The notes beneath the pieces are model-generated. The model was given only the letters and a program-made list of their open reading frames with translations. It ran no database searches and was not told the origin of the DNA. This document shows, one piece after another, positions 19,686 to 55,674 of a stretch of 64,000 nucleotides of DNA. The position numbers and the translations under genes are program-made. Source of the DNA: Amoebophrya sp. A120 (Eukaryota > Protista > Dinoflagellata); NCBI GenBank assembly GCA_905178155.1, contig CAJINV010000004.1:6364828-6428827 (forward strand), in the 5' to 3' direction. The stretch's first letter is position 1; every line of letters starts with the position of its first letter.

Positions 19686-19835
19686 TGTATCGTTACGTCA
19701 GAAGTAGTATATTGCCTGGAGCCCGCACGTCAAACTAGCCCCCAACTACAGCCGATATGCTCGTGAAGGATCGCGGGCGAAAATGTTGATCTTTTGCCGG
19801 ATCTTACGAGAGTCGAGAGCGCAGAGCTTTGCCAT
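19686..19835 (-). repeat. Split direct repeat B2 (3' terminus of the element)
   Basis: 19686-19820 is identical to 20246-20380 (135 bp); homology extends to tttgccat after a 7-nt insertion. Confidence 0.95.
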
Positions 19836-20009
19836 AGAGAGAAGGGGGCTAGGTGACGCCTGGGAGTGTGAGTGAAGTTGGAGTGAACTCTAACAAATGA
19901 TCACGAAGTTGAAATGAACAGGGCAAACCACGCACTTGTATCCCGCCCGAGGAGGCGGCGGATGAGTACGTGGGCCTGTGGCCTGGAATGAGAAGGGTGA
20001 GGAGGGTGG

Positions 20010-20245
20010 GAAAGGAAAAACAGATCGTTCTCCGTCCGCTAGGTCTGAGAATGAGGTGAATGGAGTGAGAGTGAAGTGATGGAATGAAGCGGATCACGTT
20101 TCGTTTAGCGTGGATGCGTGTCCATACCCCACGGAATGCAAACGAGCTGCCACGAGCGGCTTTACAGCCAATAACCTACTTCCGACTTCGCTCACACAAA
20201 TTGGATTCCAGACGTACTACTTCGTACTACTAAGGATCCATAATC
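20010..20245 (-). repeat. Split direct repeat A2
   Basis: 236 bp matching 33113-33348 with one mismatch seen (gtttAgcg vs gtttCgcg). Confidence 0.95.
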
Positions 20246-20388
20246 TGTATCGTTACGTCAGAAGTAGTATATTGCCTGGAGCCCGCACGTCAAACTAGCC
20301 CCCAACTACAGCCGATATGCTCGTGAAGGATCGCGGGCGAAAATGTTGATCTTTTGCCGGATCTTACGAGAGTCGAGAGCTTTGCCAT
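20246..20388 (-). repeat. Split direct repeat B1, directly abutting A2
   Basis: Copy of 19686-19835. The junction ...cataatc|tgtatcg... equals the two element termini joined together. Confidence 0.95.
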
Positions 20389-20494: not shown

Positions 20495-23400
20495 TCATCG
20501 GGTGACAGGTGGAAGATACAGGCTTACTTTGACACTCATTTTTTTGCATTTCGTTTTGAAATCATACACAGCACGACCGTAATCGAACTTGCACCCGCCC
20601 GCGGAGCCAGTGCCGATGTTCATCGGTATGGCGATTGTGCGGCACTTTGGTGTGAGTGACTTTTTGTTCTCTTCCTTGATGTAATTGTAGATGTTGTTCA
20701 TGTTGTGACGAAACAGGGATAGACGCGCTTCTTTCCCATCATCGGTTGCGTGGCCGTCCCAAATTGTCTTGAACGAATTTGGTTCAGCAGCCGGTGGGTT
20801 TCCCTTGCGAAACATTGTGTAAATGTTGCAAACACGTCCTGAAATCTCAAATGAACCGCATGGCTTGTCTTTGGCTGGTAAATGATATTTCGAAGCGGAA
20901 GGGAAGATAGCATACAAATCCTTTGCGATGCCCTTTGCTTGGGTGATCGGGGATGTGCATGCAATGTGCAAAAACAAATCTTCGTTGCCATGACCAAACT
21001 GACCTCTTGTGGCGCCGTGTAGAAGGTCTAGCTGAAACTTGAACTTCGCGCCCTCTTTCAGCTTCGTCACCTGCGGGCGCAGGTCCAACTTCGGGAATCT
21101 TTCCTGGGACCACATGCTGATCGGGACGGAAGAGTAGATGATGTAATCGTCGTCGGCGGTCAAGTCTTGCCCGTTGGGGAGTGCGAAGCACTGCGACCCG
21201 AACTGAAACTTGGACACCTGGTGCAGGGGTTGCAACAACTGAGCGAATTTGCCGCCGAGGCTCTGTACCACTACCGCGATTCTTGGTCTCGCGGTTTCCG
21301 GCGTCCCTCGTAGCAGCTTGTGGAGGTACTTGAGCGCTGGGAACAGCACCGTGGTGGGCGGGAGCCACCAACTGCGCTTTTCCACGAACTCGTCGTAGTT
21401 GACGAAGATTTGATCCGAGTGGTGAAACTTCTTTCCCAGTCTGGCGAAGTTGTCGGAGCTACTACTACAGAAAGCCTCTACTGATAATCCGGGCAGCCTG
21501 TTGGAGATGATGCCCCATGATCTTTTGTTGAAACGCTTTTCGGGGTTGTTGTCGTACAGGCTGCAAAGCTTGTCACGAAACCCCTCCTTGAGATCGTTGA
21601 AGTTTACTGCTTTTTTCTTGCAGAACCGCTGATCGCGCTGCTTTTTTTCGTCGGAACGCACATCGGGGCTGTCGCGTGAGTGTACGTCAGCGACTGTGTT
21701 TTCATCACCGTAGCACTTTGCCGCCACGAGTTCTATGCGCAGTTTGTCGATCATGTCGGCAATGTTGAGTGACGCAGCATGTAAATCCGGTGAGGCGCAG
21801 CTGCCTTTGTTGCACAGCCGCTTCGCGCACGGGTTGTCGGTGTAGTACAACACGAGTTTATCAGTGAAGTCGACATCACCGCACCCGCTGGCTTCGTGGA
21901 TGATGAAGAACGGCGCCAGTGATTCCAGGCCGTTGATGTCGCAGTCGCGAAACTGCTCGGGCCACGTGCCCTTGTACGCGATGCCGTTGACCGTCCCGCC
22001 CCAGCCCGCCGTGGTGGCGGCATCACCGTAGACGACCACGAGGATGTCAGGGTCGATCGACCTGATGAATACATCCCCGAACTCGAGTACTTCGGCGCGC
22101 CAAAGAAACGAAGCGTGGCCATTGTAGTAAACTTTCGCGTACGGTTTTCGGGCGAGAACGTCGCGCCACCACCGCACTTCCTCGAATGAAGCCCAGCTGA
22201 CTTCGATCCAGGGGTTGTGCTTCGGGTTGTTCTGCCACACCTTGTACACCCCACTGCTGTTAAGGTCGTACTGAATGGCGTGCAGTGGGCCGCGATTCAC
22301 TACGAAAGTGATGCTCTGCAGCTTGCCAGCGCATTTTGCGAGGTCTTTTGCCTTGCAGCGGTAGTTGGATTCGGGGGACTTGAGGTAGTCCATGAATTCG
22401 CACAAGTAATCGTGGTACTTCACCCGTCGTTCCTCTTCGACGTACAGCCGCATGGTGTCGGTGTGGAGTTCGAACCCCAGCCACGGCATGTGTCGGGTTG
22501 GTTTGATGAGTTTCCCCGCGACGACATGTAGATCGAAGCCAAGATTAGACAGGAAGTAGAACTGCCGGCTCAAATCGTCCTCAGCGGCTTGGAAGGACAA
22601 CGGGTCGGATGTGACTATGTTTCTTATGTCATCGACATAATCGAAACGCTTCGCCAGAATTCCCGACTGTACTCCCAGTTCCAAGGCGTGTTTGACCATA
22701 CTGCGGGGTGGAGTTTGTGAGGTGATTACAAAGATGACTTGCATGAATTTTGAAAGATGATGCGAGGTATGAATCGAGTTTGTCATGCTAACGAAAATCA
22801 AAACTGTACCGATCATTGATGCCCGGGGCAGGGCCTACGCCAAACGGAACATATAAGTGTGTTCCGATTTCGCCCGTCGTGTCGTCGCCTGTGTAGCAGC
22901 CCAACAGTCGTCGGCACGATGCGGCAATCATGTAGTGGCTGAAACAATCTTTCAGGTCGATTCCCGTGAGGTAGCAGTTGGGAGTGACGTGCTCGAGCAG
23001 CTGCCACCAGCCGCTGTAGTCCACTGGCTCGCTGTAAATGGACTGACTCACGCGCGAGACTTTGTTCGACCAGTCGGTGACTAACCGTGCTTTCGTGCCG
23101 CCCTTCTGCATGAGTACGGTGGACGGTGCCCGCGTGAGATCCGCTGGGTAGATGACTTGTTGTTTTTTGAAGTCCCAGACTAGATTCTTCTGGTCCTGCC
23201 GTAGCTCGTTGTAGTCGTACAACACCAGCTTATTCGCAGTTTTGAACCGATAGATTTCGTTCAAAAACTGTTCGCGGTTATCTTCCGCACCGGAGTAATT
23301 GTTTTGCTGCGTCGGTTGAAATTCCGTGTCGGTGAAAGTGAAAGACACGCCCGAGAACCACTCCCGGACCACATCTGGGCTTACACCCCAGCGGATAGCG

Positions 23401-23642
23401 TTGTAGATGTTGAATGTTAAACCATCAAGCGCATGCTGGTCTTCTTGTTCGCGCCACGGGTCGGTTGGGCCGGGCTGGGACTTGAGGAACCCTGGGAGGT
23501 CCTCCGGACATGTCGGGAGGCCTGCTGCAAGGTAATCTTCAAAGGTGTACCTTGGTGCGGGTGTCAAGCCTAACCTCTTCTCATGCGCTGTGTGCTCGAG
23601 GTGCGCCGGAAGCGCCCGCGTCAGGCATGAGCGGAATGGCAT
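20495..23642 (-). CDS. Pol: reverse transcriptase, RNase H, degenerate adenine-methyltransferase-like domain and Macro domain; 2 exons
   Basis: RT: ARLVTDWS, IDLKDCFSH, VPFGVGPAP, YVDD, WLG. RNase H: YGDAA..GWG, INGLE, YTDN, NTVADVHSR. MT-like: VEAFCS..SWWLPP..IAVVV. Macro: AKGIAKDLYAIFP..IAIPMNIGTGSAGG. GT-AG intron 22701-22809 joins INDR|MVKH. Confidence 0.92.
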
Positions 23643-23938
23643 TCTGAGATCTTTTTGCTGTGAGTTTCACAAATGAAGATGAGGGATTGGCGCGGTGGGT
23701 TTTGATGGGAGTACTCGTTGTTTTTTCCCGACCTACACTCGAAACGCTCGCTGAATTGAGGTCGCTCAGATGCGGCTGTTGAAAAGACGTCACTCAGAGA
23801 AAGCGCTCGGCCGTTGACGTGGCAACAACAGAGAGAACAGGTTAAACGACGACGACGCCGGTAACTACTGTCCTCCGAGCAGTGGCATGACCACGGTGAA
23901 TCGTTTTCATTTGAAAAAAGGATACGAAGAAATAATGT

Positions 23939-26900
23939 TCACTTGCGCACCGCAGATGGATTCAGTCCGAGTTTCTTTGCAACGCGAGGAAATGCGAAGA
24001 AATTGACTTCGCCCGTGTTCAACTGGTTTGCGAGTTTCGGTGCGTACTTCAGAATGTCGTTGCTAGTGAAGTATTCTTCTTGCAGACTGTTATGTAGCTG
24101 AGTAGGCTGCTTAATTTTCTCGCGAGCATCGCGGGGTAGCGCCCACACCCGCTCAAGCTGTTGTAGCGTGGTGATTGCTCTGGCGTGTTGTACTTCTTTT
24201 TCGACGAAGCTGTCCACGATTTTGTGGAGCTGCAACGGTTCGATGGGAGCATATCTCTGATCGAGCATGTCCGCATTTCTCCAGCCACCCTGGAGATATG
24301 CTATTTTCCCGATAGCATCATGCTGTCGATAGAAAGTGGCGCCGCCGTGACGCAGCGACACTGAACCTTCGAAATTAGCTTTCCGGTGATTCACGAAGGC
24401 GCTTTTCGTGTCCAGTCGCACGCGGTCCTTCCCAAGCCTCTCGCCGCGGGTCGGGATTCTGTTCAAGCCGATGGTCACGAAGAACGGATGACTTTCGGCG
24501 TACGCGGTCGATTTGTGATGCAGAATGAGCGCCGTACTGAATTTCGTCCACTTCTGTATGAGCGACGCCATGCTCTTCGGCACGACGCAAAAACTACCCC
24601 GACCGTACTTGTCGTTTTTTGCGAACCTGAACAAAATGATAGTGGTATTGTGAATTTCAGTGCGCAGTACGATGAGGATGCGTTATGAATTTTTGCATGA
24701 TAAATGACAAAGTTGCACCTGATGTGGAAGGTTGGTATCCCGTCTTTCATAGAGAAGTCGTTCCGGTTGAACTGGCGGAGTTCGTCGTTTCTTCTCACGC
24801 CGAAATAACCGACGCAAATGATGACGGCTACTTGCAACTTGATCGCCGCTGCAAGAAAGTTGCGTTTGTCAAAATGCTGATGACAGATCCACTTGGGGTT
24901 GTCCCAATTGTCGACTTCCCCCGCGAATGCAGCGTCGAACTCCTTCTGCAGGTTTCTGATGATTACTGAAATCTCGAAGAAATCCGGGATCACCTTCTTT
25001 GCTGCGACAGCGTGATAAGCGTTCAGCTTCAATCCCCGCCATGCGCGATAGAAAAATTTTGATTTGTCAGAACAACTGTACGACGACAAGTGCGGGCGGC
25101 TACTGTTGAAAATGTTTATCGCTGCGGATAACGTGAGGCACGCGCCCCATCGCACTTTGCCGTCCGTTTCTTTGATGGCCGGGCTGTTTTCTTCTTTCTT
25201 CATGATTTTGGTGAAAGCGCAGAAGAAGGTGATGCACTCCATCTCGTTCTGCACCGGCCACAACACGCGACCAACGAAGTCGCAAATTAGTGGTACGTAG
25301 CGGCTCAGCGCCTGCTGATATGATTTCGCGGTTGACGCTGCGATTGACGAGTTGTTCACCATGACCAACTCTTCTGCTAGCTCATCGCGCACCTTGTTGT
25401 CCACTGGTAGCGAGTCGAAGAAGTCGGAGGCAGCGGGAAATAGTACCAAATCTAGGGATGATGAATCACCTGAGTATTTGTCCCATTTGTCTGCCTTTCG
25501 GTGAAGTTTAATTTGGTTGGCGGTCGACAGGGATGAATTCCCGAGAATTTCCTGCACCGTTTTTTGAATGTCGTCTGTGTCGGAGTTCTCCGCGGACGAA
25601 TGAAATTCCGATCCGACGGCACTGTCAGAAGTGAAGCCGTCGTCGCTTCCATCGCTGTGGTCGCTGAGAGCGATGACACCACGACTGACGTACTCGTCCA
25701 CGTCGACGAGATCGTCGCCATCATCGTGAGCCTCCTCGTCATGCGCTGCGTCGCGGCGGTAGTGCATGATTTCAATTTGCGAGCGGACCGCTTGCCTTTC
25801 TTCGAGTTGCTTCTTGTTCAGCTCGACGAGAGCGGAGTCAAGAGCGGCCTCCAGAATCTCGTCGTCGGACGTTCGTGCAAACGAAGATGAAGAGGACTGC
25901 GCGCCTGCTTCGCGCTTGGACTTCTTTGCGGCTGGTGAGGCAGCAGCGGCTTTCTTCCTAGCATCTGCTTTGCCCTTCAGGTAGGCTTCCCTCGCGACCG
26001 CCTCGACGTCTACGAACGGTTGTTGTTGCTTTGGCTCCTCTGCCGCACTGCTTTGGTTCAAGAAATCGAACATGTCACTCTGAACCGGCTGCTTCGCGGT
26101 TTGTGAAGCGACAGCAGCGGCCAGCTTTGCGTCTGAGCGCTGCGCCGCTGGTAGATCCTGACGGAGTCGATCCTTCAACTCCGGCCTGCGGAAGAACATG
26201 CTAGGATCGAACATCTCTCTTCGATCGTTTTGATGATGGTTCGGACTGCTCGCTGTTAGTTTCGCGAATTCGTCGCTGTTCAGCCAGGTTGCATACAGCC
26301 CGGTGGACCACTTGTAGCTGATCGGCCTGAGAGAGGGTGGGGAGTCCGTTGCACTGGTTGTTTCCCCCGGTGGTGCCCAGTACGATGGTGGCGGGATTGC
26401 CGAGGACGGGGTCTCTTGGTCCCAGCAGCTGTGGCGCAGCACCAGCAGTGCTGCTGCTAGCTGAGCTTGACGAAGCACCCGCACTTTGTCTTGCGCTGCG
26501 TGAAGATGATGAAGCAGCTGACGATGACGCAGAATTTAATGATGATGAGTTTGTGATTATGAGGTCGTGTGTGAAGTGTAGTTGATTCACTTCCTGCAAC
26601 GAATTCGCAGTCGATTCCACGAGTGCGATGTTGGCGGCCTGTCGCAGCGGGGCTGCAGCTTCCGCTGCCGCGTGCGCACGCCGCTGCTCTTCTTCCGCCC
26701 GCTGTAACACGCGAGCTTCGAAGGCCTCTGCGTCGCGGCGAATCCGATCGAGATCTGGCCCTACAACGACACTGGGCGAAAAGCTGGAAGTTGTTTTTGC
26801 GAGCTGGATACTTTCTGCTCGCGCTCGGTGTTGTAGTCGCGATTATTCCTGACGAGGTACTCGCGATAAACACCGTTGCGGAGATACCACCTCTCGACTC

Positions 26901-27248
26901 TGAGTGTGCCCCGGAGTGCGTTGAGCTTGGCGATGCTCCGCACTTCGTATCGCGATGTCGAAGGAGTTTCACCCGTGCCGCCGCTGGCGTCGTACGTGCC
27001 GGCTACCAAGGATTTGGCTACTTGGAAGCTGCCGCAGCTGACTAATTTTTGTTGTCCGGGCAGCACTCTGTCCACACTGTGACGCCGCGCTCAGCGGCAG
27101 ACGAGCCGGTGTCTGGCTGTATTGTGACACTAGCAACGGTGGCTTCTCTGCATGGGGTATAATTGAAAACAGCCTTCACGAAATCGTAAGTTTTGCTTGA
27201 TAGCTTATGCTTTCTTTCGCTCAAGAATTGCTCCACATTCTCGCTCAT
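23939..27248 (-). CDS. Tyrosine recombinase with a long N-terminal extension, multi-exon
   Basis: Motifs STAKSYQ, GYFGVRRNDEL (R), HIR|FAKND (K), VSLRHGGAT (R) and GGWRNADMLDQRY (W, Y). GT-AG intron 24627-24718. Exons upstream of 26484 (ORFs 26201, 26761, 27042) are unresolved, so the start is tentative. Confidence 0.85.
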
Positions 27249-27796
27249 TTTGCATTTTGCTATGGCAAGAATAGGAGCGGAAACACGACGACCAGTGCGT
27301 ACGAGACACGTTTGTACGAATGAAAAAGAAACATGACAACGAATGAAAATGAAAACATGAAGACGGCAGAACATCCGGATGAAATGACGGCACGACGCGT
27401 TCAAGAAACTGACAAAAGTTTCAAGGCGCGAAGGTACTAAAGTGATGCTTTCCGAGGCGTTTTAAAATGGGACGCACTGTGCATTTCTTTCTTCAAAGAC
27501 AGTGTTAAAGTAAATTGCTATTTTTGTCGACTAAGAAACTGCTCATGCATTTCATCGTCGACCGTGCGACGTGAAATCGAGACGCAGCTTGCAGCTGCGA
27601 AACACGTGTTCACTCAAATCTGTGATGCTGTACAGCTGGGTAAAATGAAGGCGAGGCTTGTTATTGAGCTGTTGTAAATTTTTTCTGTAATCTCTGATAA
27701 TAATCCCTTGACTTTAGTGCAAGTTTTTTGATTCAGATGATGAAGCCAAATGAAGCTTATTGTCTGAAAATGTCATAAGATTTCGTGTAAATTTGT

Positions 27797-30284
27797 TTAC
27801 GTGCGGGGCCGCTTGTTGGTGCGGTAGTTTGAGTCTTTGAACTCACACTGCTCGCGCCAGTGGTATTGTCCTGAACGACCACGCTCCTTACAAATTTCAC
27901 ACTCCACAACACGTTCATTCTTCGCGGCGATACAGTGACTGTAACCACTTTGATGCGTAGCGTATCCTCTGCCAGCTAAAAAACAGCTCTTACACTTGTT
28001 CGCTCCCCCCGCAAGCCATTTGCTGGTCGCTTTTTCGTCTTTGTTGTAGCACTGCTGCAGCGCTGCTTGCGCAGCCTGGGCATCTTGTTTTAAGATTGCC
28101 GTGGTGAGGATCGAATCGATTTCCTTGTTCGTGTGGCGGTCCACACCGACGTACGACGGAGCCTGTGCGGCGCCACCTTGGTGGCCACCCTTTCCGCCCT
28201 GGTGCGTGTTCGCGATGCCGCCACCGCCGCCTCCACCCTTGTTCTTGCTACCTGAGGGCGGTTGCAATGACAAGACTTTGCGGCGCAAGGCGAGATGTAT
28301 CAGAATGAAGAGCGTGTTTTGCATGACAAACATGACGGCGCGTTTCGCCTGAAAATATGAATTTGTGACGCAAGCAAGAATGAAAGTGATTCGAAGGTGG
28401 TTGATAGTGATACCCTTGTTGGTCTTTTCGCCATGCGAAGACGCGCCGCCGCTGCCGGAATTGGCGGTCTTGTTGGGTTTGTCGTTCTTGTTTTCGTGGA
28501 ACACCATGGATTTTAACTGCCTGGCTGTGGCGATATTGCTCGCCGCGCACATGAGATAGCGCGGGGCAAACTCTAAATTCCAGAGCGCACGCTTGGCCGG
28601 AGTTATGGTGCCCCTGAATTTCACCTCCTTACAAAAACTCCTGTATTGTGAGGCGAAATGAATTTGAGTGAAGAACTTTTATGCGAAATGAAATGAAATG
28701 AGAATCATGAGTACGCATTACAAATTGCATAACTTATCAACCAGAAAACTACCTGATTGTCGAGTAGCAGGCGAAGCTGATGTTTGCCGGTAAGGTGATC
28801 ATGGTGGTCTTCCCGTGGAGTTTTTCGGATTTGGGTGCAGCCATATTATGGCACTCTAATAAGTACTCAATGGCAAATTTAAATTTTGCCGCGAGCAAAC
28901 TGCACGCTTCGTCCTCCCCGTAGCACAAAATGACTTTGTCCAGGTAGTCCTTGCAGGTCTGCAGCGAGCCACCGTTGGTCGGCAAAATCAGACTCTACAA
29001 CAATTTTTGCATGAAGATTTTCATGTTGAATTCCCGATGAAATTTGACATGCACCTCGAAAAAATTGATAGCAGACATCCTGACGATTACCGAAATGGAG
29101 GTAAGCAAATGCTGTACCTTCCATTTGTAATGGGTATTCGCTTTCCGTTGCAAGTCCGAGATCGCGATGCGGGTCGACGCGGACACCGTACCCGACGCTT
29201 CGACCTGCGCCGCCGCGAGCACCGTCTGTGGGTCCATCCGGGTGGTGTGATCGGTGTTTTCAAAATTCGGCCGCTTCAAAACCTGAAACAAGGGTTGAAA
29301 ACGACGAATGGATAAATGAGGTGAGTTTGTGATGTGTGTGAACATGCATCAGTGATGAAAGTGAAAATGAAGGGCACAGCTTTACCTTCAATCCCGCCAC
29401 TAGTTCTTTGGGGTCGAGCGCGGACAGTTTGGCGCACCACTTCACTTCGGACACGATCAACGGGATCACGCTTGCATCACCGCTGCTTTCCGCCAAATTC
29501 TTTTTGACTACCCCCGCGAGGTCCTGGGCGTCCTGAACGTTACACACCGCGCAAATGTTCTGGGTCTCGTCGAGGCTGTGGTGAAGTTTTACACGTGTTT
29601 GAAACTTGTGATGCGTATTTCCGTGGTGCAAAAATGAAAAGCACTGTCATGGTGTGGGGTGAAAATGACATGATTTTAATCGGAGTACATGTTGAATTTT
29701 GACATCCAGGACGAAAAGGCTCCCACTCCGCTTTTCTTCACGCAGTCGTAGCAGGCCGCCGCGGTGCACCCTTGGCGCCGCAGGCAGCAGAACTGAATGC
29801 CCTTCTCCGGTTTTTCGGTCCGGCAAAAAGCGCATGGGTAGTCGGCCAACCGCGTGTTGGCTGCGGCGGGACCCCCTACTGCGGCTGCCATCTTGTCTAC
29901 TTCCGGGTAATCGATACCAAGCAGATCGAAGAACTCTTTACAAATGCGTTGGTGATTGTGCAGCTCTAAAACGAAATGGATGTGGTGTAAGATGATTTCG
30001 AGTTTGTCTTCCAGATAGTGCAACAACCAAATACTGATGTGGTCACGCGAGAACTGGCCGATCGGATTGATCAGCAGGTCGATGAATGGATTGCGGTCCG
30101 AGTGCTGGTGGAAGAAAGCAAGCGACTCAGGCGTGATATAGCGACTGTGGTACGGATTATTGGTTTCTTGAACATCAGTGCTCACCCACACAATTTCTTC
30201 TACTTCTTCTTCTCCAATGCTGTTTATTGTAGAATCCGTATCGCTAACCACAGTGACATCAAAGTTTTTCTTAACCCAAGACAT
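27797..30284 (-). CDS. Gag-like protein, ~624 aa: N-terminal RING/PHD-like Cys cluster and two C-terminal CxxC..H..C fingers; 6 exons
   Basis: GT-AG introns 29576-29688, 29283-29385, 28995-29117, 28641-28752 and 28252-28413 give one 1875-nt ORF. Cys motifs CAFC..CC..C..CYDC..CAVC, CKSC-x8-H-x6-C and CEIC-x9-H-x4-C. Confidence 0.75.
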
Positions 30285-30444
30285 GTTGAAGCACAACTTC
30301 AGATAATTGGTCGCTGTTAGAATCGAATTTTTTTCGTACTGAAATGATTGCTTTTTCCTTTTCAAAACTGCTCCTTCGAATTGAAATGAGTACGGAGCTG
30401 AAGTGTTCTAATGGTGAATGGAGAGTGACAACCGTCTAGCAGTT

Positions 30445-31136
30445 TCAGTTCAACGCCACGCGTGGCGCAGTCGCGATCACTGCTTGCGTCTGCGGCATTC
30501 CGTCGATTGTGTGGCCGATCAAGGTGGTCCACCCTGTCGGCAGTCCCAGACCGATGGCCGTGACATCGGTCATGCTCCGCACGAAGAACTTGAAACTCGC
30601 GCACGGGGGCATGAGGATCACGTTGAACTCCATCAACATGTGCCGCATCCGCAAATTCGCCGGGGCTCCTTGCAGCGTGTGTTGGATGAACCCATCCAAC
30701 TGCTCGCTCATGAGATTGAACGCTTCGATGCGGATGTGCGGCTCCACGCGGGAGCGCACGAACTGCTCGCAGACGTCCCCGATATTCACCAACGTGGCCG
30801 CTCCGAACACTAAAGCGCTGCACACCTGGCGTGAGTTGGTGTTTGGTACATGCTTGAAGTGTTGAGCTGTGTGAATATTTGACCATGCATGAATCTTTTT
30901 TGAAAATGATAAGAAAACGAGACCTTGAAATCCATCTGATTGGTAATTCCCGACAAAGTTTTGATTTTTTGCAGCAGCAGCAACTCGCTCGAAGTGCACT
31001 TCGTATCATACTCCAAAACTGCATAGCGCAAACCCGCGGGTAACTCGGGCATGATGACCTCGTTTTCCTTCGGGCAGCGCGGGCAGCGTGCGGGGGCCGT
31101 TGTAACGCCACGCACAGCCACCGAGTTTTCAGTCAT
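30445..31136 (-). CDS. Retroelement accessory gene (hypothetical, N-terminal CxxC), probably 2 exons
   Basis: Exon MTENSV..CPRC plus exon VCSALVFG..RVALN after a cag acceptor; donor site unresolved. Confidence 0.45.
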
Positions 31137-31138
31137 TT

Positions 31139-31513
31139 TTACTTGTGTTCGCCTTCGAAAATTTTCTTGTGATCTTTGCACGAAGACGCGGAAGCTGAGC
31201 TAGAAGAAGAAGAGGGTGCCTGCTTGTCGCGCAATTTTTTGATCTTGTTCAACTCTTTGACATGATTCAACCAGCAGGGCAGTGTGCTCACACACTCCTT
31301 CCTCGGGTACGCGGACAAAAAGCAGTTCTTGCACGGAGTCTCGTGCTTTTTGAAGAACTCTTCGCGCGCTTTTTTCTTCTCCAGCGTGTCTTTGTCGGAC
31401 GCATTGATAGCATTAAGAAGGAGAGAAGCTCTGTTGTCGACATCGGAAATGTGACACAGGCGGCCCAGCATGTTGGCCATTTCTTTATCAACTTTCTCGC
31501 TTTGTTGTGACAT
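31139..31513 (-). CDS. Retroelement accessory gene, 124 aa, putative Zn-binding (CKNC..C..C..H)
   Basis: ATG-initiated ORF with PCKNCFLSAYPRKECVSTLPCWLNH, which resembles the Gag-like CKSCFLAG finger. Confidence 0.55.
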   Translation of the reverse strand: MSQQSEKVDKEMANMLGRLCHISDVDNRASLLLNAINASDKDTLEKKKAREEFFKKHETPCKNCFLSAYPRKECVSTLPCWLNHVKELNKIKKLRDKQAPSSSSSSASASSCKDHKKIFEGEHK

Positions 31514-31690
31514 TTTGATCTGAAACTGCAGGTGAAAGTGAGTAGGTAGTCTAAAGAATTGCTAAGCTGATAGGCGAGCAATAAATTTAGAACGCATAAT
31601 GATAGTGAAGTGAAAACCATGAAAGAAATGATAATTGTAGATTGAAGATCATGAGCACTTTGGCGCTAGCGAATGAAAGCACCCGACGCC

Positions 31691-32519
31691 TTAGTAGAAC
31701 AATTTTTCTTGTTCGGTGGTGTTCCGCGTGGTGACAGCTGTCACACCATCTTCGGTGATTTCTTCCGTCACGGTGTTGCGGTCACGCGAGAAAATTTTCT
31801 TCATGGTACGCGTGCGACCATCCGCCGACTTTTCGCCCGAGCACCTCACCAAGGACTGCTGGACCTTTTGAAGTGAATGTTTTTTAATCGCATGAAAATT
31901 CTTCTAGCGCAGTGGTGTCATGTTCGATCCACGGGTTCGTGTGCAACACAATTCCCAACAGACGACACTGATTATACACCTTGCGTTCGTACACTTCTCC
32001 GATGACTTTCGCCGTGTCTGCGATGACCTTCGCCGGCTGTAACAGCTTCGTGAACAGCTCGACGATCGAGCGCAGCTGCACGAAAATCTTTTTTGTGTTG
32101 CTCATTCCCCCTTGGGCGCGCCTGTTGCTCTCCGCTCCCTGCATGAGCGCGTAAAAAGCGAACCCGGTGAGCAGGGCCTCGCACCAGGTCAACTGGAACG
32201 TGAAGCGAAAGATGCAGGGGAAGGTGAAGATCCTGCGATTAATTTTTGAGATGAATCTGTGTGAAGTGACAATGAATGAAAACATGATCACTGTGAATGA
32301 CATGAAGTGAAGTCTGAAAGTATGATACCGATACGCCGAGGACGCGTAGAAAACGCAGATTCCCACATAGTGTTCGCGTTCCACGAAAACGCGCTTCACC
32401 CATCCAGAGAGCACCAGAATGGTGGCTAGCCCCACGAGAAATGGGGTGAGGATTTCGTCCTGCAGCATGAACAAGATCAACTTGTCCGCTGGGGCAAGGT
32501 CCGGCGTCGGTGGTGACAT
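31691..32519 (-). CDS. Retroelement accessory gene: small multi-pass membrane protein, 3 exons
   Basis: GT-AG introns 32233-32334 and 31865-31979 give a clean ORF. Hydrophobic segments ILTPFLVGLATILVLSGWV, YVGICVFYASSAIFTFPCIF and WCEALLTGFAFYALM. Confidence 0.6.
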
Positions 32520-32558
32520 TTTGATGTGAGACAATGAAATGAGAACAGGAAGTCGAAG

Positions 32559-32861
32559 CTAATTTTTCTTTTGCTTCTTCGGCGCGGGCTCGGTCTCCAC
32601 CTCGTCTTTTGGAATAGCCAGCTGTTGATGTTCGTCGCTGAAAATCAGAAAGCCGCTCGGCATGGGTCTAACTTTCTTTCCCAGAACTGTTATGTCATTG
32701 CTGTGCGTTCCAAAATACAAAGGATAAGCGGAGACAAACGGCTCAGTGGTGCCGTCCCATTTCGTTAGAGTGAAATGCGTTTGGCCCGGGCCAAATTGAA
32801 AATATACCGCCCGCAAGTCAGCAGGCATTTTGTTAGTTGACGAAGCTACAGGTGAATTCAT
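32559..32861 (-). CDS. Retroelement accessory gene, 100 aa, with C-terminal NLS-like PAPKKQKK
   Basis: ATG-initiated ORF of normal complexity; first gene after repeat A1. Confidence 0.55.
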   Translation of the reverse strand: MNSPVASSTNKMPADLRAVYFQFGPGQTHFTLTKWDGTTEPFVSAYPLYFGTHSNDITVLGKKVRPMPSGFLIFSDEHQQLAIPKDEVETEPAPKKQKKN

Positions 32862-33112: not shown

Positions 33113-33348
33113 GAAAGGAAAAACAGATCGTTCTCCGTCCGCTAGGTCTGAGAATGAGGTGAATGGAGTGAGAGTGAAGTGATGGAATGAAGCGGATCAC
33201 GTTTCGTTTCGCGTGGATGCGTGTCCATACCCCACGGAATGCAAACGAGCTGCCACGAGCGGCTTTACAGCCAATAACCTACTTCCGACTTCGCTCACAC
33301 AAATTGGATTCCAGACGTACTACTTCGTACTACTAAGGATCCATAATC
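33113..33348 (-). repeat. Split direct repeat A1 (5' terminus of the element)
   Basis: Near-identical to 20010-20245. Confidence 0.95.
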
Positions 33349-37487: not shown

Positions 37488-38658
37488 CTACGCACTGCCC
37501 TCCGGCCTCACACGCCCGTTCCTCTCCTCGCCCGTCTTCTCCTCCGCCTTCGTCTCGGTCTCCCCGTCCGTCTTCACCTCGGTAGAAGCGGGTGTCGTGG
37601 TGGTCGTGATTGTCGCGTCTTCATCCGCAACCGTATGCATTCCAAATATGTCTGGGTCTGGAAAGATGCAAGGTTTGTCATGTTTGGCTAACACGACTCT
37701 TTAGTCTGTTATGCGCGTGACCCAAGCCCCCTCACTTTTCTCTCATGCGGAAGCTCACTTTATCATGCATAATAGACAAGACTGTAGCAACCCCAAAGCT
37801 TGTCATGCTTGGCAGTAAAGTGAGGTTTTCTCGTCTTTCTCAACCAGCATCACAAGTTTCCAGACCCAGACATTTTTGCATTTGATAATCCGCCGTGGTC
37901 GTGGTTGTCGTGACAGTGGAGTTTGTCGTTTCCTCCGGGACCTCAAAGCTGTGCGGGTCGCAAGCGCCGCAAGAAATTCCGGCCGAGTATGAAGGGAAAA
38001 AAACAATAAACGCACCAGCAGCTTTGTCGTGGTGCTTGTTCATCGTCGTTTTGGTTTTCATCGTTTATGATTCTGGTGTAATTACAAGCTGTGGAATTCA
38101 TGCAGATAAGTCCCGGAAGCTGTTGCTGTATGAGCTGCCTACACATGTCACTTGAATGCATGGTGAAAAAATGCATTGCCCATGCTTGTGAAACCGCGAA
38201 CGACCACGGACTAGGCGCTATGCCGAAGTGGAAAGTATGTATCTCATACACCGAACTGGTTGGCCATCGCTTTTTGGAACCCGTTGCGCGAGTCTGTGTG
38301 CTCCGGGGCAGCTGAAGAGGATGGTGGGCAATAAGTAGAACATGGTTAGAGGAGATTCAGATTATAGAGGTGTTTTCTATGAATAAAGCATCAAGGTTGT
38401 TAACTTCATTATTTTTCATGTGTGAAGATTCCAAAAAAAAACTTCTATACCGTCGTAGCTGAACCACTTGTTGTCTTCAGAGCTTTTCAAGTTTTCGCCG
38501 GATGCCTTTGCCATGTCTTCCTCAAACGCCGCCTTCTCCGAGCGCCAGTCGTCGTCGTCCTTCACCTTCTTGCTGTTACGCAGGTGCTTCGCCTCGTCAA
38601 TCACGACCTGCGTGACAAAGACAGCCAAGCACAAGGATCTACTCGAGCAGGAACGCAT
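37488..38658 (-). CDS. Hypothetical, probably secreted protein with a Thr-rich C-terminus; internal exons unresolved
   Basis: First exon has a hydrophobic N-terminus. The last two exons join across an introner (TTTADY|TVADEDAT). Confidence 0.45.
37637..37884. mobile_element. Introner family A (248 bp)
   Basis: IR caaatatgtctgggtctggaaa / tttccagacccagacatttttg, flanked tAT...ATa. Excision restores the frame. Confidence 0.88.
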
Positions 38659-39543: not shown

Positions 39544-40507
39544 TCAGGCCTTCACAAACTCATACACCCCGTTCTCCTCGTCAATGTCCAGGTCGCAGTC
39601 GAACGCCTTGCACATTTCGAACAGCAATTGCCGCGAGCCTTTCTTCTCCACGTCGTCCGTGAACACGGAGTAAGCCTTATCCCGTGTAAAACCGTCCCCA
39701 ACCCAGAGTTATTGGATGCCTAAAATGTTTCTCATGCGCAAACCCATGAGGAGCGTTTTCTAGTCGTGTTTTGAGATTTGTCATGCTCGAATCAGCATGA
39801 TAAGCCCGAGCTGTGATGCTGCTTCACTAGCTAAAGTTACGACTGCATTAAATGCTGAAATTTGTCATGCGCAGCACCCAAAGCTTTTTGATTTGTCTAG
39901 CAGATTTCCCACATTGACTCTGGGGAAGTGGGCACGTTTTTACTCAGCATACGTCTCCCCTTCCACAAGCGAGGCCAGGTTCATTTCCAGGTCCAGTTTC
40001 CAATCCTCGCGGATTTGCTTGTCAGGGTCAAGTATCAACGGTAAATATCCCTGGATGTCTGGCAGACTGTAAACTTGTCATGCAGGTTTTCCATGACCCC
40101 TGAGTTCTGGAATGCGGGGACTAGCATGCCAGACTCTGCTTGGTCTCTATCATGCCTATCCTGCATGAGAAACTCCCTCCCAACGTGGTCGAAAGTGGAC
40201 ACCAGCTTTTGGCACTCATGCAACACAGATTTTTGCATGATTCGAATTTAGCATGACAAGTTGCGATCTTCCAGACCCAGACATATTTGCAATCCATATC
40301 GAGCGACTTGCTGTCGAAATTCGCCTTCGCATCGTACGCGAAGTCGTATTCCTCCTCCCGATCTGTATTCGTACTGCCTGCTGCAGCTGCTCCGAGGGGC
40401 GGATTTGTTTGCTGTGGGAGGAGGAATTGCTGGGTGGAGGTGGTCATCTGTCGCTGATTTACATGACTTTCAGGTTGTACTATATGTCCAGAAGTCGCCC
40501 CGCCCAC
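39544..40507 (-). CDS. Hypothetical protein, 3 exons
   Basis: Exons ..YDFAYDAKANFDSKSLD / LPDIQGYLPLILDPDK..GETY / KAYSVFTDD..YEFVKA*, separated by two introners. Confidence 0.55.
39681..39948. mobile_element. Introner family C
   Basis: Imperfect IR gtaaaaccgtccccaacccagagttattg / cattgactctggggaagtgggcacgtttttac, flanked tAT...ATa. Excision gives GETY|KAYS. Confidence 0.75.
40049..40295. mobile_element. Introner family A with one decayed IR
   Basis: Interior is closely similar to 18489-18744. Right IR intact, left IR degenerate. Confidence 0.8.
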
Positions 40508-51448: not shown

Positions 51449-54400
51449 TCACAGGGAAAAAATCAAACTGCCGTCCAGCCAGCGCATCGCCCGGAGGTCG
51501 TACATACCCCATGGCGGACAGACCACCAGCGCGTTCGCCCATGCATTCCGCGTCACGTGCTCCGCGTACTGGCGCATCCCACTTTCCGAAAGTAAATCAA
51601 AGGGATACCGCTCCGACACATCCTCGCAAACCCGCGCTAGCAGCGCCAACTGGTCTTCCCGCGAAGAAAGTTCGAGCTGCAGATGGTAAACACGCGCGCG
51701 CAACGTGGTCAAATTGGCGACTGTAGCCGGATCGATTGATGTGACAGCCGGAGATGTAGTTGTGGTTCCTCCGGAGGAGCTCCTGCGCGTCAAACCGGCA
51801 CGAAGAGGTGGTAGTGTGGGTGTCGATGCCGGATGAGCTGCTCCTGCACTGGTTGTCGATTGTCCCGGCTGCTGATCAAGTAACCCTGGGGACGACCTTT
51901 CTCTACTCGTTGTGCCAACATTTTGATGCTGCTGCAACAATCCGAGACGACGTTGCTGAGGCTGAAACGGGTGTTGTTCATTATGATGTTCGTTTTGAAG
52001 ATCATAATTTTCGAACCCACTAGAAGTCCTCCTCCCTCTGCTCCGGAGCCGCTGCAGCCACCCTTCGAGCTGGTTTGCAGCGTTCACAGACGGGAATGGT
52101 CCGAACAGAATTGGCATTCGTTCTCCTCCCGTTGAAGACGGAGATGATGGGTCGCGCGAGGTCATCGGAGACTCGAGCTGTGAAAAATTAATGATGACTG
52201 TCTTTTTTTTTCAAAACTTCACCGCAGCCGATATTTCATATTTTCAACATGTCAAACCAAAGACAAAAATACGTGATCCAAGACTCGCTGCTGTTCTGCT
52301 TGTTGCGGCCCGGCGGACCCTTGTTCCATCGCCGGAACTAGCCCCGGCCCGGCCATCACCTCGCGCAGTCCATTTGCTTCTGCTTGCGATGCGTAGGAGG
52401 ACGGCTGCCTTAGGAGCTGTGCCAAGCGCAACATCGAGCCGAAAGATGATCCCATTGCAGGAGCCCCTATTTCCCCTCCTCCCATGGGAACAAATGGCTG
52501 GAACTGCGGCTCTGTAACCTGCTCTTCAAAACCCGGTGCCGCCGCCATGCCTGATGGTGAAGATGCCGTCTCGTTGTTACAATACCGCAGGTTGAAGATG
52601 TGCGGCGGGTGCATAGCTAGACTGCAAGAACCTGAAGTAGACCACGAGGGTGGAGCTGCTGTGTCAGTGCCACTTATCTCTATTGGTGTTGTTCCTGTCG
52701 CACCACGATGACCCTCAAGAAAAGCTCTTCGATGTTCATTCTCTGGCGGCCAGCACGACACATGAACCGGAAGGTGCTCCGGGACCAGCCCCTGTTCAGC
52801 ATGATCATTATCCGTTCTGTCCTGCAACGTAGTAGCTGCCATACTCATCTCCTCGGACTGCATTCTCTCAAACCACGGCTCGGCATCCAGCCCCTGCTCT
52901 CGAAGCCGGTCTACTTGCACTGGAAGCAAGGCGTTAGGGATCGGCGGAGTGGGCGGCCGCCGGAACAAATCTTCTACTGCCTGCTGTTCTCTGGGAAAAC
53001 GAAAATTATTGACAGCAATATTATCCCTACTTCCATCAGTCGTGCTGCGAGCCGAAACGTTACCAAGCTGAAGTATTTGCCGGCAAAGCTCGGTGGCGGT
53101 TGGCTGTTGATACGGAGGACCATTAGGATGCCTCTCCTGCCGGAGATGATTCTGATTTGCGGCCCCGGAATAAGATGAGGATGGTGATGATGATAAAAAC
53201 GGTCCTTTCGTGGTCTCCCCTATACCGAACGAGTGTTCTTTACTCGTCCCCGGAGTTGTAGGAGGTCCCATTTTGATCAGTTTCCGGTTCTTCAACCTGG
53301 CGCGACCACTGCCCGTTGCTGCCGATGGTGCACTGCTGCAGTTGTTATCTACTACTTCGCAACCAACCTCTGTGTTTGTCGAAGCCTCGCAAGAGCTCGA
53401 ACTTGCAAGCGGAGTTGATGTCAACATTTGGGGAGCTGTTACAGTCGACGCTGGGCCACCAGCAGGAAGCAGTTCTTCTTCTTCGACAGCGACGGGACCG
53501 TTGCGGTTGTACAAGGGTCGGTAATATGATGTCTCATCTACAGACATTTCCCTATAATTCCCCTGCTCTGTCCGCTGGTTCTTGGCATGCGAACATGACG
53601 AGGAGCTACTCGTCGTCTCTGTCGCGCGACCCTTAGTACTTCTACACGATATTGCGCGGTGCTGAAGCTGCCGCTGCACAAACCAATCCGTCACGTTCAA
53701 AGTAGGCACTGTGTTTCTTGTAACACAACTTCCGCTGCTAAGGTGTGCAGGAAGTACATCTCCGGAACAACTAGGAAGCGAGGACTATGAGCGTGAGAAA
53801 GTATTCATTTCAAAAATATTCACAGGGCCGAAAAAAATTTTTTTTGCGCAATTAGTGAACGCCCAGAAAAAAGGCTCAGCGACATGCGCGCGCGAGAGCT
53901 TCGCTGCGGCGCTTCATGTAGAAATCCTGGGCCAGAAAGCGCACGAAACGCGTTCGGCGACTTGCAGGGCCGAGAGATATCAAGGCCTACGCCTCAAGTG
54001 TGGTCCTTCCTCTCTAAAGAAAACGATGTGGCGCGCGCTTTGGCGGATTGCTTGCTAGGTAGCTGGGCGCCCTCGCTCCTTTGCGGGGACCCCGCGAAGT
54101 TTTTCTGCAGAAGCTGGAAAGGCCCACTTCGCCCAGGCGCAAGCGCTACTCCTCTAAAGGCCAAGGCTGAACTGAAATGCGCCACAGCGCCGGCAATGGC
54201 TGTTTTGCACCAAGGCGGACACCTCTCGCCCGCTTCGCTTCTCAATATTCATTTTCGAATCACGACGACACTGCGTTTCCGTTTTTATTAGCAGAAGCTA
54301 CTCCCACTTGATTTATCTAATATTCATCTGCGCAATTTGCGACAGCGAAAAACGCCAAAAAAGTGCGCACTTTCTGGGAAAAACAGGCGTTTTTTGGGGA

Positions 54401-55674
54401 GGTGAATACTTTCGCGTATCCCACTGCTATGCTCCTTCCAGACCAGCCCAAAAAGTAAAAATATTCATACCTCCTCTGAGGACGTCAAAAAAGTGCTTCT
54501 TTTCTGCTTGCAACCTTTGCGGCTTTTGGCAGCACACAAAGTTGCCGAGCTTGTCTATAGACTTGGCCAGCAGAAGCATCCTGGTAAAGGCCAGGCGACC
54601 CCGTCTTTTGCAGGGGTTTGCGCCTCGGCAAAGTGTGGCCGTCTAGAGCAACTGCTCTAATGCCCGCCACTTACCAGGATGTGCTCGAGCCCAGTCGGGA
54701 TCGAGCAACGCCTGTAGGGGCAAGGCAGCGCAGAGTGGCAGCTTCTTCAAAGCTTTGAGACCGTGATCTGCCGCCTGAATGCTACGAATGCTGCCACTTG
54801 TGGAAGTTGGCTTTGCATGTCGCCGGCGTGCAGGCCGTCCCCTGTGTGTTTGAAGGATCTGACTCTCGAGCGCCATCGACCGACTGGGCTCAGCAAGCGA
54901 CTTCCAGGTAGTACCTGCGTCGGGGCATCGCAGGCGCGTTAGCGCTCTGCAATGCCTCACGCACTTCGCCCCGGCACACCGGCTAAGGTGTGCAGGAAGT
55001 ACATCTCCGGAACAACTAGGAAGCGAGGACTGCGGCCCTGGTTCCAGCGTCGAAACGCCACTTGCATAGAAGTTGCTAGTATCGCCTTGCTCTTCTCTCG
55101 CCGACCGAGTGAAAGGTCTACCGAGGTCGCCAGCTGGTGGATAAAAATTGTTCACTCCCATGTGGGTGGACGACGATGTTGTTGTTTCAGAAGAAGCCCT
55201 CTGTAGAAGTGGTGGTAGTGGTAGTCCTCCTGGCAGTACTAAACCCGGCGTCAGTGCGAATCTTGTCGCACCACCAGCAACTCCAGGGTTGTAGTGCGCA
55301 TGATATGCGCTCGAACTCGCATAATTTGAAGAAGATGCTCCTGCACCTCCCGCGTTTCTACTTCTCCTGTTTGGTCGATTACGATCTCGTGTTCTAGGAA
55401 CTAGGCCTTGCCGTCCAGCAGCGAGTGGAGAGGGACCCATATTAGAGGACTGAAACCCAGAGTTGTACCCTGTCGCTACTACACCTTCATTCCCATACTG
55501 TTGTAGATCATCTTCTACCCGGTTGCCCTGTCCTGCTGCCGCTGAGTCGCAGAAGAAAAGCAAGCAGGCGAAAGAAACTAGCACGGGGCGACGCCGGCAG
55601 CTCACTGAGTAGCTGCGACGCACCGGGATAAACTGAGGGAGCGACCCTGGTGCTCGTCCCAGCCCGCCCGCCAT
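51449..55674 (-). CDS. Hypothetical secreted low-complexity protein interrupted by a 1.2-kb insert (intron or disruption)
   Basis: Signal-like VLVSFACLLFFCDSAAAG. SSLPSCSGDVLPAHLS is encoded twice, and the second copy is in frame with ORF 52252..53709. GT-AG intron 52178-52272 joins LDH|LESPM. Confidence 0.55.
53737..55031. repeat. Identical 50-bp direct repeats (53737-53786 and 54982-55031) flanking a 1195-bp insert
   Basis: gctaaggtgtgcaggaagtacatctccggaacaactaggaagcgaggact occurs at both positions. Confidence 0.9.

Follow-up and report, generated by a model that had tools for sequence, protein, structure and literature searches.

Ten predicted spliceosomal introns in a split-repeat tyrosine recombinase retrotransposon of Amoebophrya sp. 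A120

The absence of introns is conventionally taken as a sign of passage through RNA; how, then, might a retrotransposon keep introns throughout its genes? The question is raised by a locus of the dinoflagellate Amoebophrya sp. A120, analyzed here within a window of 64,000 nt (GenBank assembly GCA_905178155.1, contig CAJINV010000004.1, positions 6,364,828 to 6,428,827; coordinates below are those of the window). On its minus strand, from 33348 to 19686, lies a tyrosine recombinase (YR; DIRS-order) retrotransposon of 13,663 bp with the layout A-genes-B-A-B, whose genes are interrupted by ten GT-AG segments of 92–162 nt on the same strand (Table 1). Nine had been proposed as introns in a first-pass annotation made from the sequence alone, and all nine are found at or beside the places it gave, at the level of sequence and homology, not of RNA; the tenth (D1) is new. 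One interrupts the core of the reverse transcriptase (RT), so that splicing would be needed for the enzyme and avoidance of splicing for the genome, ten times over.

Predicted introns and the age of the insertion

Both homology and resemblance to host introns give good support to reading the ten segments as spliceosomal introns rather than as frameshift sites. Homology tests covered the RT, YR, and gag introns; open reading frames (ORFs) B and D, which hold the others, are without homologs. Removal of the RT intron restores a spacing of 37 residues between the PFG and YVDD motifs, between which it had been placed, the length found in each of the 13 top-ranked relatives covering the motif (33 to 43 among all 54 that cover it). 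Against a profile built without the window, this join scores 448.8 bits, compared with 438.1 for the next of 75 frame-restoring joins and at most 433.1 for any frameshift among them, which at this site speaks against frameshifting, named in the first-pass annotation as something that would refute its reading. A spliced aligner with free ends recovers 22809–22701 unaided; the same aligner also reports in-frame protein insertions as introns (two in the window RT and two in an open ORF of the related locus L002), and these were excluded. Open frames are indeed obtained on intron removal, as had been claimed (1012, 727, 624, 205, and 197 aa), but are weak evidence taken alone: the frame is restored by many of the 224 GT/GC-AG pairs tried around the RT break, and two segments (28252–28413 and 32233–32328) are in frame and stop-free, so that an open frame does not require their removal.

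The intron called in the recombinase core also gives the best join there, by a narrow margin (74 vs. 72, the runner-up being a frameshift). All five gag introns that had been called are present. The joins of gag3 and gag5 are the best of those tried, gag5 scoring 355 against 332 unspliced; the gag2 donor is firm by homology, with its acceptor at 29283 or 29274; the ends of gag1 and gag4 are not fixed. These scores are partly dependent, since the spliced gag of the window itself went into the gag profile as its seed. Recovery from the intronless gag of locus L004 is independent of it, and returns gag3 exactly de novo and, for gag4, a 112-nt removal shifted by 3 nt. Both introns called in the membrane gene (ORF B) are present too, the end given earlier for mem1 (32334) being a second in-frame GT, compared with 32328 here.

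In composition the introns (GC 0.39, G 0.14) differ from the exons (GC 0.54, G 0.27); a host control intron has a GC of 0.33. Their richness in TTCA and TCAT, remarked on earlier, amounts to densities of 37 and 34 per kb, respectively; the exons have 7 and 5. A 3-mer classifier, trained only on three canonical host introns and host ORFs, ranks eight of the ten higher than 98% of the 734 overlapping exon windows, with gag5 and mem2 matched by 5–7%. The mem1 and YR introns exceed every exon window and D1 is in the top 2%; the gag5 score is weak, and that of mem2 is the weakest of all (6–7% of exon windows reach it).

None of the ten forms a hairpin (folding z −1.0 to 1.9), and matches among them, or to host introners, do not exceed 15 nt, in keeping with the earlier statement that no introner is present in the element; three of four host introners confirmed by RNA do fold (z −3.2 to −6.1). 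An identity of the element introns as introners was rejected on this basis. The insertion itself appears to be young, since the split repeats, A and B pairs together, show one mismatch in 371 bases; a 7-nt indel lies immediately outside the B core in the comparison of B1 with B2. The introns look far older than this insertion: they share no sequence and form no hairpins, while the repeats are near-identical. The target rebuilt from the joined flanks, CGATGC^AATGTATG, resembles the internal B-A junction, CGATACA^GATTATG. Such a likeness is expected if a tyrosine recombinase inserts a circle.

Classification and relatives

The element has the features of the DIRS order (a DIRS-type RT-RNase H with PFG...YVDD, a tyrosine recombinase instead of a DDE integrase, and a gag-like ORF) and the split direct repeats of PAT-like elements (A1...B1-A2-B2, with 189 nt between A2 and B2). 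A DIRS1-like assignment was rejected: the ends are direct repeats, not inverted terminal repeats with an internal complementary region. On the 3′ side of RNase H, the element and its relatives share a conserved domain that bears a WxxPP motif and has no Pfam match, which we take, from its motifs, to be the DIRS methyltransferase-like domain. This domain seems to be present, arguing against Ngaro. By structure the element is best described as a PAT-like split-repeat YR retrotransposon, the tree considered below holding no named PAT reference.

Several known systems are similar in part, as described in the available portions of the articles cited. PAT-like elements (PAT, TOC, kangaroo) have the same split repeats, gag, YR, and RT-RNase H; they also have, after RNase H, a methyltransferase-like domain absent from Ngaro and VIPER (PMC3266345, PMC3783388), to which the WxxPP domain here may correspond. 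The present element differs from them in being 13.7 kb long, with genes that do not overlap, at least four accessory ORFs, a pol tail resembling a macrodomain, and the ten predicted introns. VIPER/TATE elements of kinetoplastids share the A1...B1-A2-B2 repeats, three separate ORFs, and a trans-splicing host (PMC6681497), but are described as lacking the methyltransferase domain (PMC3266345). SymbioDIRS elements of Symbiodiniaceae share A-coding-B-A-B repeats, a divergent RT poorly matched by Pfam, and the coexistence of two gene orders; SymbioDIRS-Dnmt3 has a cytosine methyltransferase and intronless ORFs (PMC5890265), whereas the present element has no cytosine methyltransferase and is intron-rich. 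Penelope-like elements are documented to retain introns through retrotransposition (PMC8557442), in agreement with the first-pass statement that this is known mainly for them; they have another RT and integration enzyme and mostly one intron, often in the 5′ untranslated region, compared with ten across coding regions here. Crypton DNA transposons (including Glomhopper) have an intron-containing tyrosine recombinase gene (PMC13465315), but no RT, gag, or split repeats.

No account of intron-rich DIRS-order elements, or of such elements in Amoebophrya, was found in the available main-text portions of the literature. Goodwin and Poulter, in 2004, reportedly mentioned spliceosomal introns in some tyrosine recombinase retrotransposons, and the bare phenomenon may thus be old. 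The word "intron" does not occur in the main text, as available, of PMC3783388, PMC3266345, PMC6681497, or bioRxiv 10.64898/2026.05.21.726589. This family may appear in the repeat tables that supplement PMC7789003 and PMC12130899.

With the second pol exon as query, HMMER gave 141 relatives, three of which (P0005, P0151, and P0152) carry PF00078; among 20 RT relatives looked up, six are Amoebophrya gene models. Word-based protein searches with pol and YR gave no match, and no relatives were found in scans of viral contigs and genome contigs. One metagenome scan yielded eight loci (L001–L008). In four of these, belonging to two families (L005–L008), RT is broken by inserts, mostly of 49–76 nt and 6–8 per locus (8 in L005, 6 in L006, and 7 in L007 as far as the contig end), whose removal leaves RT without frameshift or stop. 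Six of 7 inserts folded from L005, and 6 of 8 from L007, form strong hairpins (z −2.9 to −7.7), suggesting that these are introner-like; where no hairpin forms, some of the in-frame calls may instead be insertions in the protein. Over 3176 aligned bases, L006 and L007 show 9 differences (99.7% alike). Whole inserts of 65 nt (L007 3943–4007) and 63 nt (L007 5702–5764) are nevertheless present in L007 and L008 and absent from L006, and a third, of 60 nt (L007 2011–2070), is absent from L008. This presence and absence in near-identical copies would reflect either recent introner gain or precise loss via partly spliced RNA. Between L006 and L007, the coding sequence of RT differs at six places, five of them synonymous, from which RT appears to be under selection in these intron-bearing elements.

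The gag gene is interrupted too in L002, L005, and L006, with a 121-nt GT-AG intron in L006; joins in the relatives' gag, modelled from L004 alone, are unreliable. In the related protein P0002, an insert of 34 residues, intron-like in composition, lies within RT (seen in the protein only). Two gene orders occur within the one clade: RT-gag-YR in L004, L005, and L006, and in the window gag-YR-RT, with YR-RT also in P0008. The RT intron site of the window has an L005 insert no more than 1 nt away; chance could suffice for this, and a shared site is not claimed.

In a quick tree (59 rows, without bootstrap), the window RT groups with L002, L005, L006, and Amoebophrya models. It falls in a 34-row clade (approximate likelihood-ratio support, SH-aLRT, 100) that includes four Amoebophrya models, apart from 21 DIRS1-like rows. 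Intron-bearing RTs do not form one group: three changes are needed, and shuffles do equally well in 68 of 500 cases. One member of this RT clade, P0149, carries the name of a bacterial metagenome-assembled genome, and is probably a eukaryotic contig in a bin.

How the introns might persist

The reading preferred here, to which we would give a probability of roughly 0.6, is that the template is unspliced full-length RNA, and that the last jump went by way of RNA still holding its introns: the insertion seems young, the introns look old, and RT has been kept intact. The host spliceosome would remove the ten introns, and proteins would be made from spliced messenger RNAs. Single-gene messages might be cut from a longer transcript by cis-splicing or spliced-leader trans-splicing, a step that would be suited by the G-poor tract and AG before most ORFs (an AG lies within 17 nt upstream of 7 of the 8 start codons, mostly behind a G-poor tract, a raw count); the host group is reported to trans-splice part of its messages (PMC7789003, available portions). 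Capture of unspliced RNA by RT would probably take place in the nucleus; a circle would be templated by the B-A junction and inserted by the recombinase at a junction-like site. With an unspliced template, any intron that the DNA copy acquires, like the introners of relatives, would pass to new copies and might in time become an ordinary intron. DIRS-1 itself can reverse-transcribe RNA with an unspliced marker intron, according to the available text of PMC7192593.

A number of results weigh against this. In the same DIRS-1 work new copies had lost the marker intron (PMC7192593); as unspliced cDNA was also seen, the DIRS order would allow both outcomes. RT is unbroken in four of the eight related loci (L001, L002, and L004, with a single frameshift in L003) and in many related proteins, and no intron site could be called common to the window and a relative. 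The contigs of L002 and L004–L007 stop short of the element ends, which makes these loci only putatively mobile. In DNA run X1, perhaps the source of the sequence itself and the run from which copies outside the window were judged, the element lies in one contig with no differing letters, at a depth of 40 (42 for another contig), and with no intron-free joint; it is single-copy at 88% likeness or above, and offers no second copy from which inheritance of the introns could be read. Region F (26201–27248) requires two unexplained joins, and damage is possible there. Finally, junction-spanning RNA was seen for none of the ten introns in RNA runs X3–X8. X3–X5 have no reads on the element; in X3 only an introner-like repeat is covered, at less than 95% likeness, and there is no sign of the strain, making it uninformative. 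X6–X8 do contain this strain (host contigs differ by 0–1). In all three of these contig RNA runs a host GT-AG intron of similar make-up to those of the element (38312–38450) is skipped, and four introners with non-GT-AG ends (37629–37887, 37983–38248, 39674–39952, and 40028–40298) are skipped in RNA contigs. The sole X6–X8 contig listed on the element (31574–31799, 226 nt, in X6, depth 2.4) crosses no intron, and there is slight unlisted RNA depth at 26393–27059. The element is close to silent in X6–X8.

The absence of junction reads, with the two in-frame segments and the two-point margin over a frameshift in YR, is what might be expected if the segments were never spliced, the frames being broken by frameshifting or plain decay. 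We regard this as highly improbable: a frameshift in RT would lengthen the PFG-to-YVDD interval by about 36 residues, at a cost of 15 bits or more, all ten segments have GT-AG ends, the eight best-scoring have host-intron composition, and X1 shows no base at variance with the sequence. A near-silent single copy with extra ORFs might also be an old resident or domesticated locus, with introns gained in place and repeats kept alike by gene conversion; massive intron gain is reported for the host (PMC7789003, PMC12130899, as available), and L006–L008 could be alleles of one locus. It is nevertheless an unlikely history, with both repeat pairs near-identical and both ends sharp, and with two other families, which have the same three genes, also carrying many inserts at other sites; a domesticated locus would, moreover, rarely retain gag, YR, pol, and complete ends.

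The first-pass annotation had proposed either selection of an unspliced template, the reading preferred here as probable, or movement as DNA, the recombinase excising a chromosomal circle and reinserting it, without an RNA stage for the introns. In favor of the latter, the element has the recombinase motifs, the likeness of target to junction makes excision chemically possible, and a single copy is compatible with cut-and-paste. We consider this route unlikely because the catalytic residues of RT and RNase H are kept here, and both are intact in intron-rich relatives, with mostly synonymous change; pure excision would not be expected to keep A1 and A2, and B1 and B2, near-identical, nor would a circle from A1-A2 recombination be able to rebuild the split repeats. 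A full-length antisense RNA, with sense RNA used only for proteins, would be a template in which introns are invisible to the spliceosome, and would keep all ten together without any special escape step. Neither antisense RNA nor a promoter for it was seen (a point that the contig RNA runs cannot test), and the element is co-oriented with the block of minus-strand host genes; an antisense template seems quite unlikely.

If reverse transcription of unspliced RNA is indeed the route, a step selecting such RNA would belong to the replication of split-repeat DIRS elements, a cycle that has been little studied, the introns would serve as a built-in marker for testing the replication route, and ORF-based annotation would miss such elements or call them dead. 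A broader proposal is that a syndinian clade of split-repeat YR retrotransposons replicates only from unspliced RNA and so responds to introns as host genes do, and that introners invade these elements, are passed on, and age into ordinary introns. We offer this tentatively, at somewhat less than even odds; were it true, introners could ride on retrotransposons, and the elements would be both vehicles spreading introners and a natural reporter of splicing-proof reverse transcription.

Gene content and surroundings

The gene order, 5′ to 3′, is ORF A, B, C, D, gag, region F, YR, and pol. None of the 17 ORF pieces of the element has a significant Pfam match.

Table 1. Features of the element and its predicted introns (window coordinates)
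Feature	Position	Strand	Basis or remark
Split direct repeat A1 (element 5′ end)	33113..33348	-	235 of 236 bases identical to A2
Repeat A2, adjoins B1 (internal copy of circle junction)	20010..20245	-	repeat comparison
Repeat B1	20246..20380	-	135 of 135 bases identical to B2
Spacer between A2 and B2, 189 nt	19821..20009	-	repeat comparison
Repeat B2 (element 3′ end)	19686..19820	-	repeat comparison
ORF A, 89 aa, no family assigned, basic C-terminus	32559..32828	-	translation; no Pfam match
ORF B, hydrophobic ("membrane") protein, 205 aa after removing 2 predicted introns	31691..32519	-	
ORF C, 124 aa, no family assigned	31139..31513	-	translation
ORF D, 197 aa after removing 1 predicted intron	30445..31136	-	translation
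gag-like gene, 624 aa after removing 5 predicted introns	27797..30284	-	colinear with gag of L002, L004, L005, L006
Region F, three overlapping frames, two joins required	26201..27248	-	short introns, frameshifts, or damage
Tyrosine recombinase (YR), 727 aa after removing 1 predicted intron	23939..26214	-	motif alignment with P0008
pol, 1012 aa after removing 1 predicted intron	20495..23642	-	relatives, motif alignment
Predicted intron mem1, 96 nt, in frame	32233..32328	-	GT-AG, GC 0.34; alternative donor 32334
Predicted intron mem2, 115 nt	31865..31979	-	GT-AG, frame restored
Predicted intron D1, 98 nt, not in first-pass list	30826..30923	-	GT-AG, frame restored
Predicted intron gag1, 113 nt	29576..29688	-	frame break real; homology leaves ends loose
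Predicted intron gag2, 103 nt	29283..29385	-	donor in best two of 70 joins
Predicted intron gag3, 123 nt, in-frame stop	28995..29117	-	best of 56 joins
Predicted intron gag4, 112 nt	28641..28752	-	homology leaves ends loose
Predicted intron gag5, 162 nt, in frame, no stop	28252..28413	-	best of 94 joins
Predicted intron in recombinase core, 92 nt	24627..24718	-	best of 139 joins
Predicted intron inside RT, PFG to YVDD, 109 nt	22701..22809	-	best of 75 joins

The putative pol protein has RT (YVDD) and RNase H (D-E-D-D) domains, followed by the putative methyltransferase-like domain and a C-terminal macrodomain-like domain. The latter (20495–20990) aligns with three small proteins at 24–25% identity, one of which matches solved macrodomain-type structures; a similar tail is found in the Amoebophrya gene model P0019, and that of P0008 is a cupin/JmjC domain. 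The YR motifs RRNDEL, FAK, SLRHGG, GGW, and RY can be aligned to the recombinase portion of P0008, in which YR likewise precedes RT. Identification of YR rests on these motifs, as Pfam gave no match and the single-sequence fold of the YR exon was unusable (predicted local distance difference test, pLDDT, 33). The gag-like protein has an N-terminal Cys-rich motif and C-terminal zinc knuckles, and a zinc-knuckle protein is common to the four related loci. In region F, a 51-nt GT-AG segment (26761–26811) and a TCA-rich stretch from 26591 are possible further introns; the stop of its last frame overlaps the YR start.

There are four accessory ORFs (31691–32828 and 30445–31513), one of them hydrophobic, with no family match; the best Pfam match of ORF B, to TMEM82, is sub-threshold (E 0.012). 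The ORF C stop abuts the ORF D start.

The flanking genes are eukaryotic (6PF2K, ATG5, SNAP, Mpv17, KH, and RNase PH). Inverted-repeat elements of 260–280 nt interrupt these host genes; introners of this sort are known from Amoebophrya (PMC7789003, available portions). Also in the host region is an exact 50-nt direct repeat (53737–53786 and 54982–55031), the two copies being 1245 nt apart.

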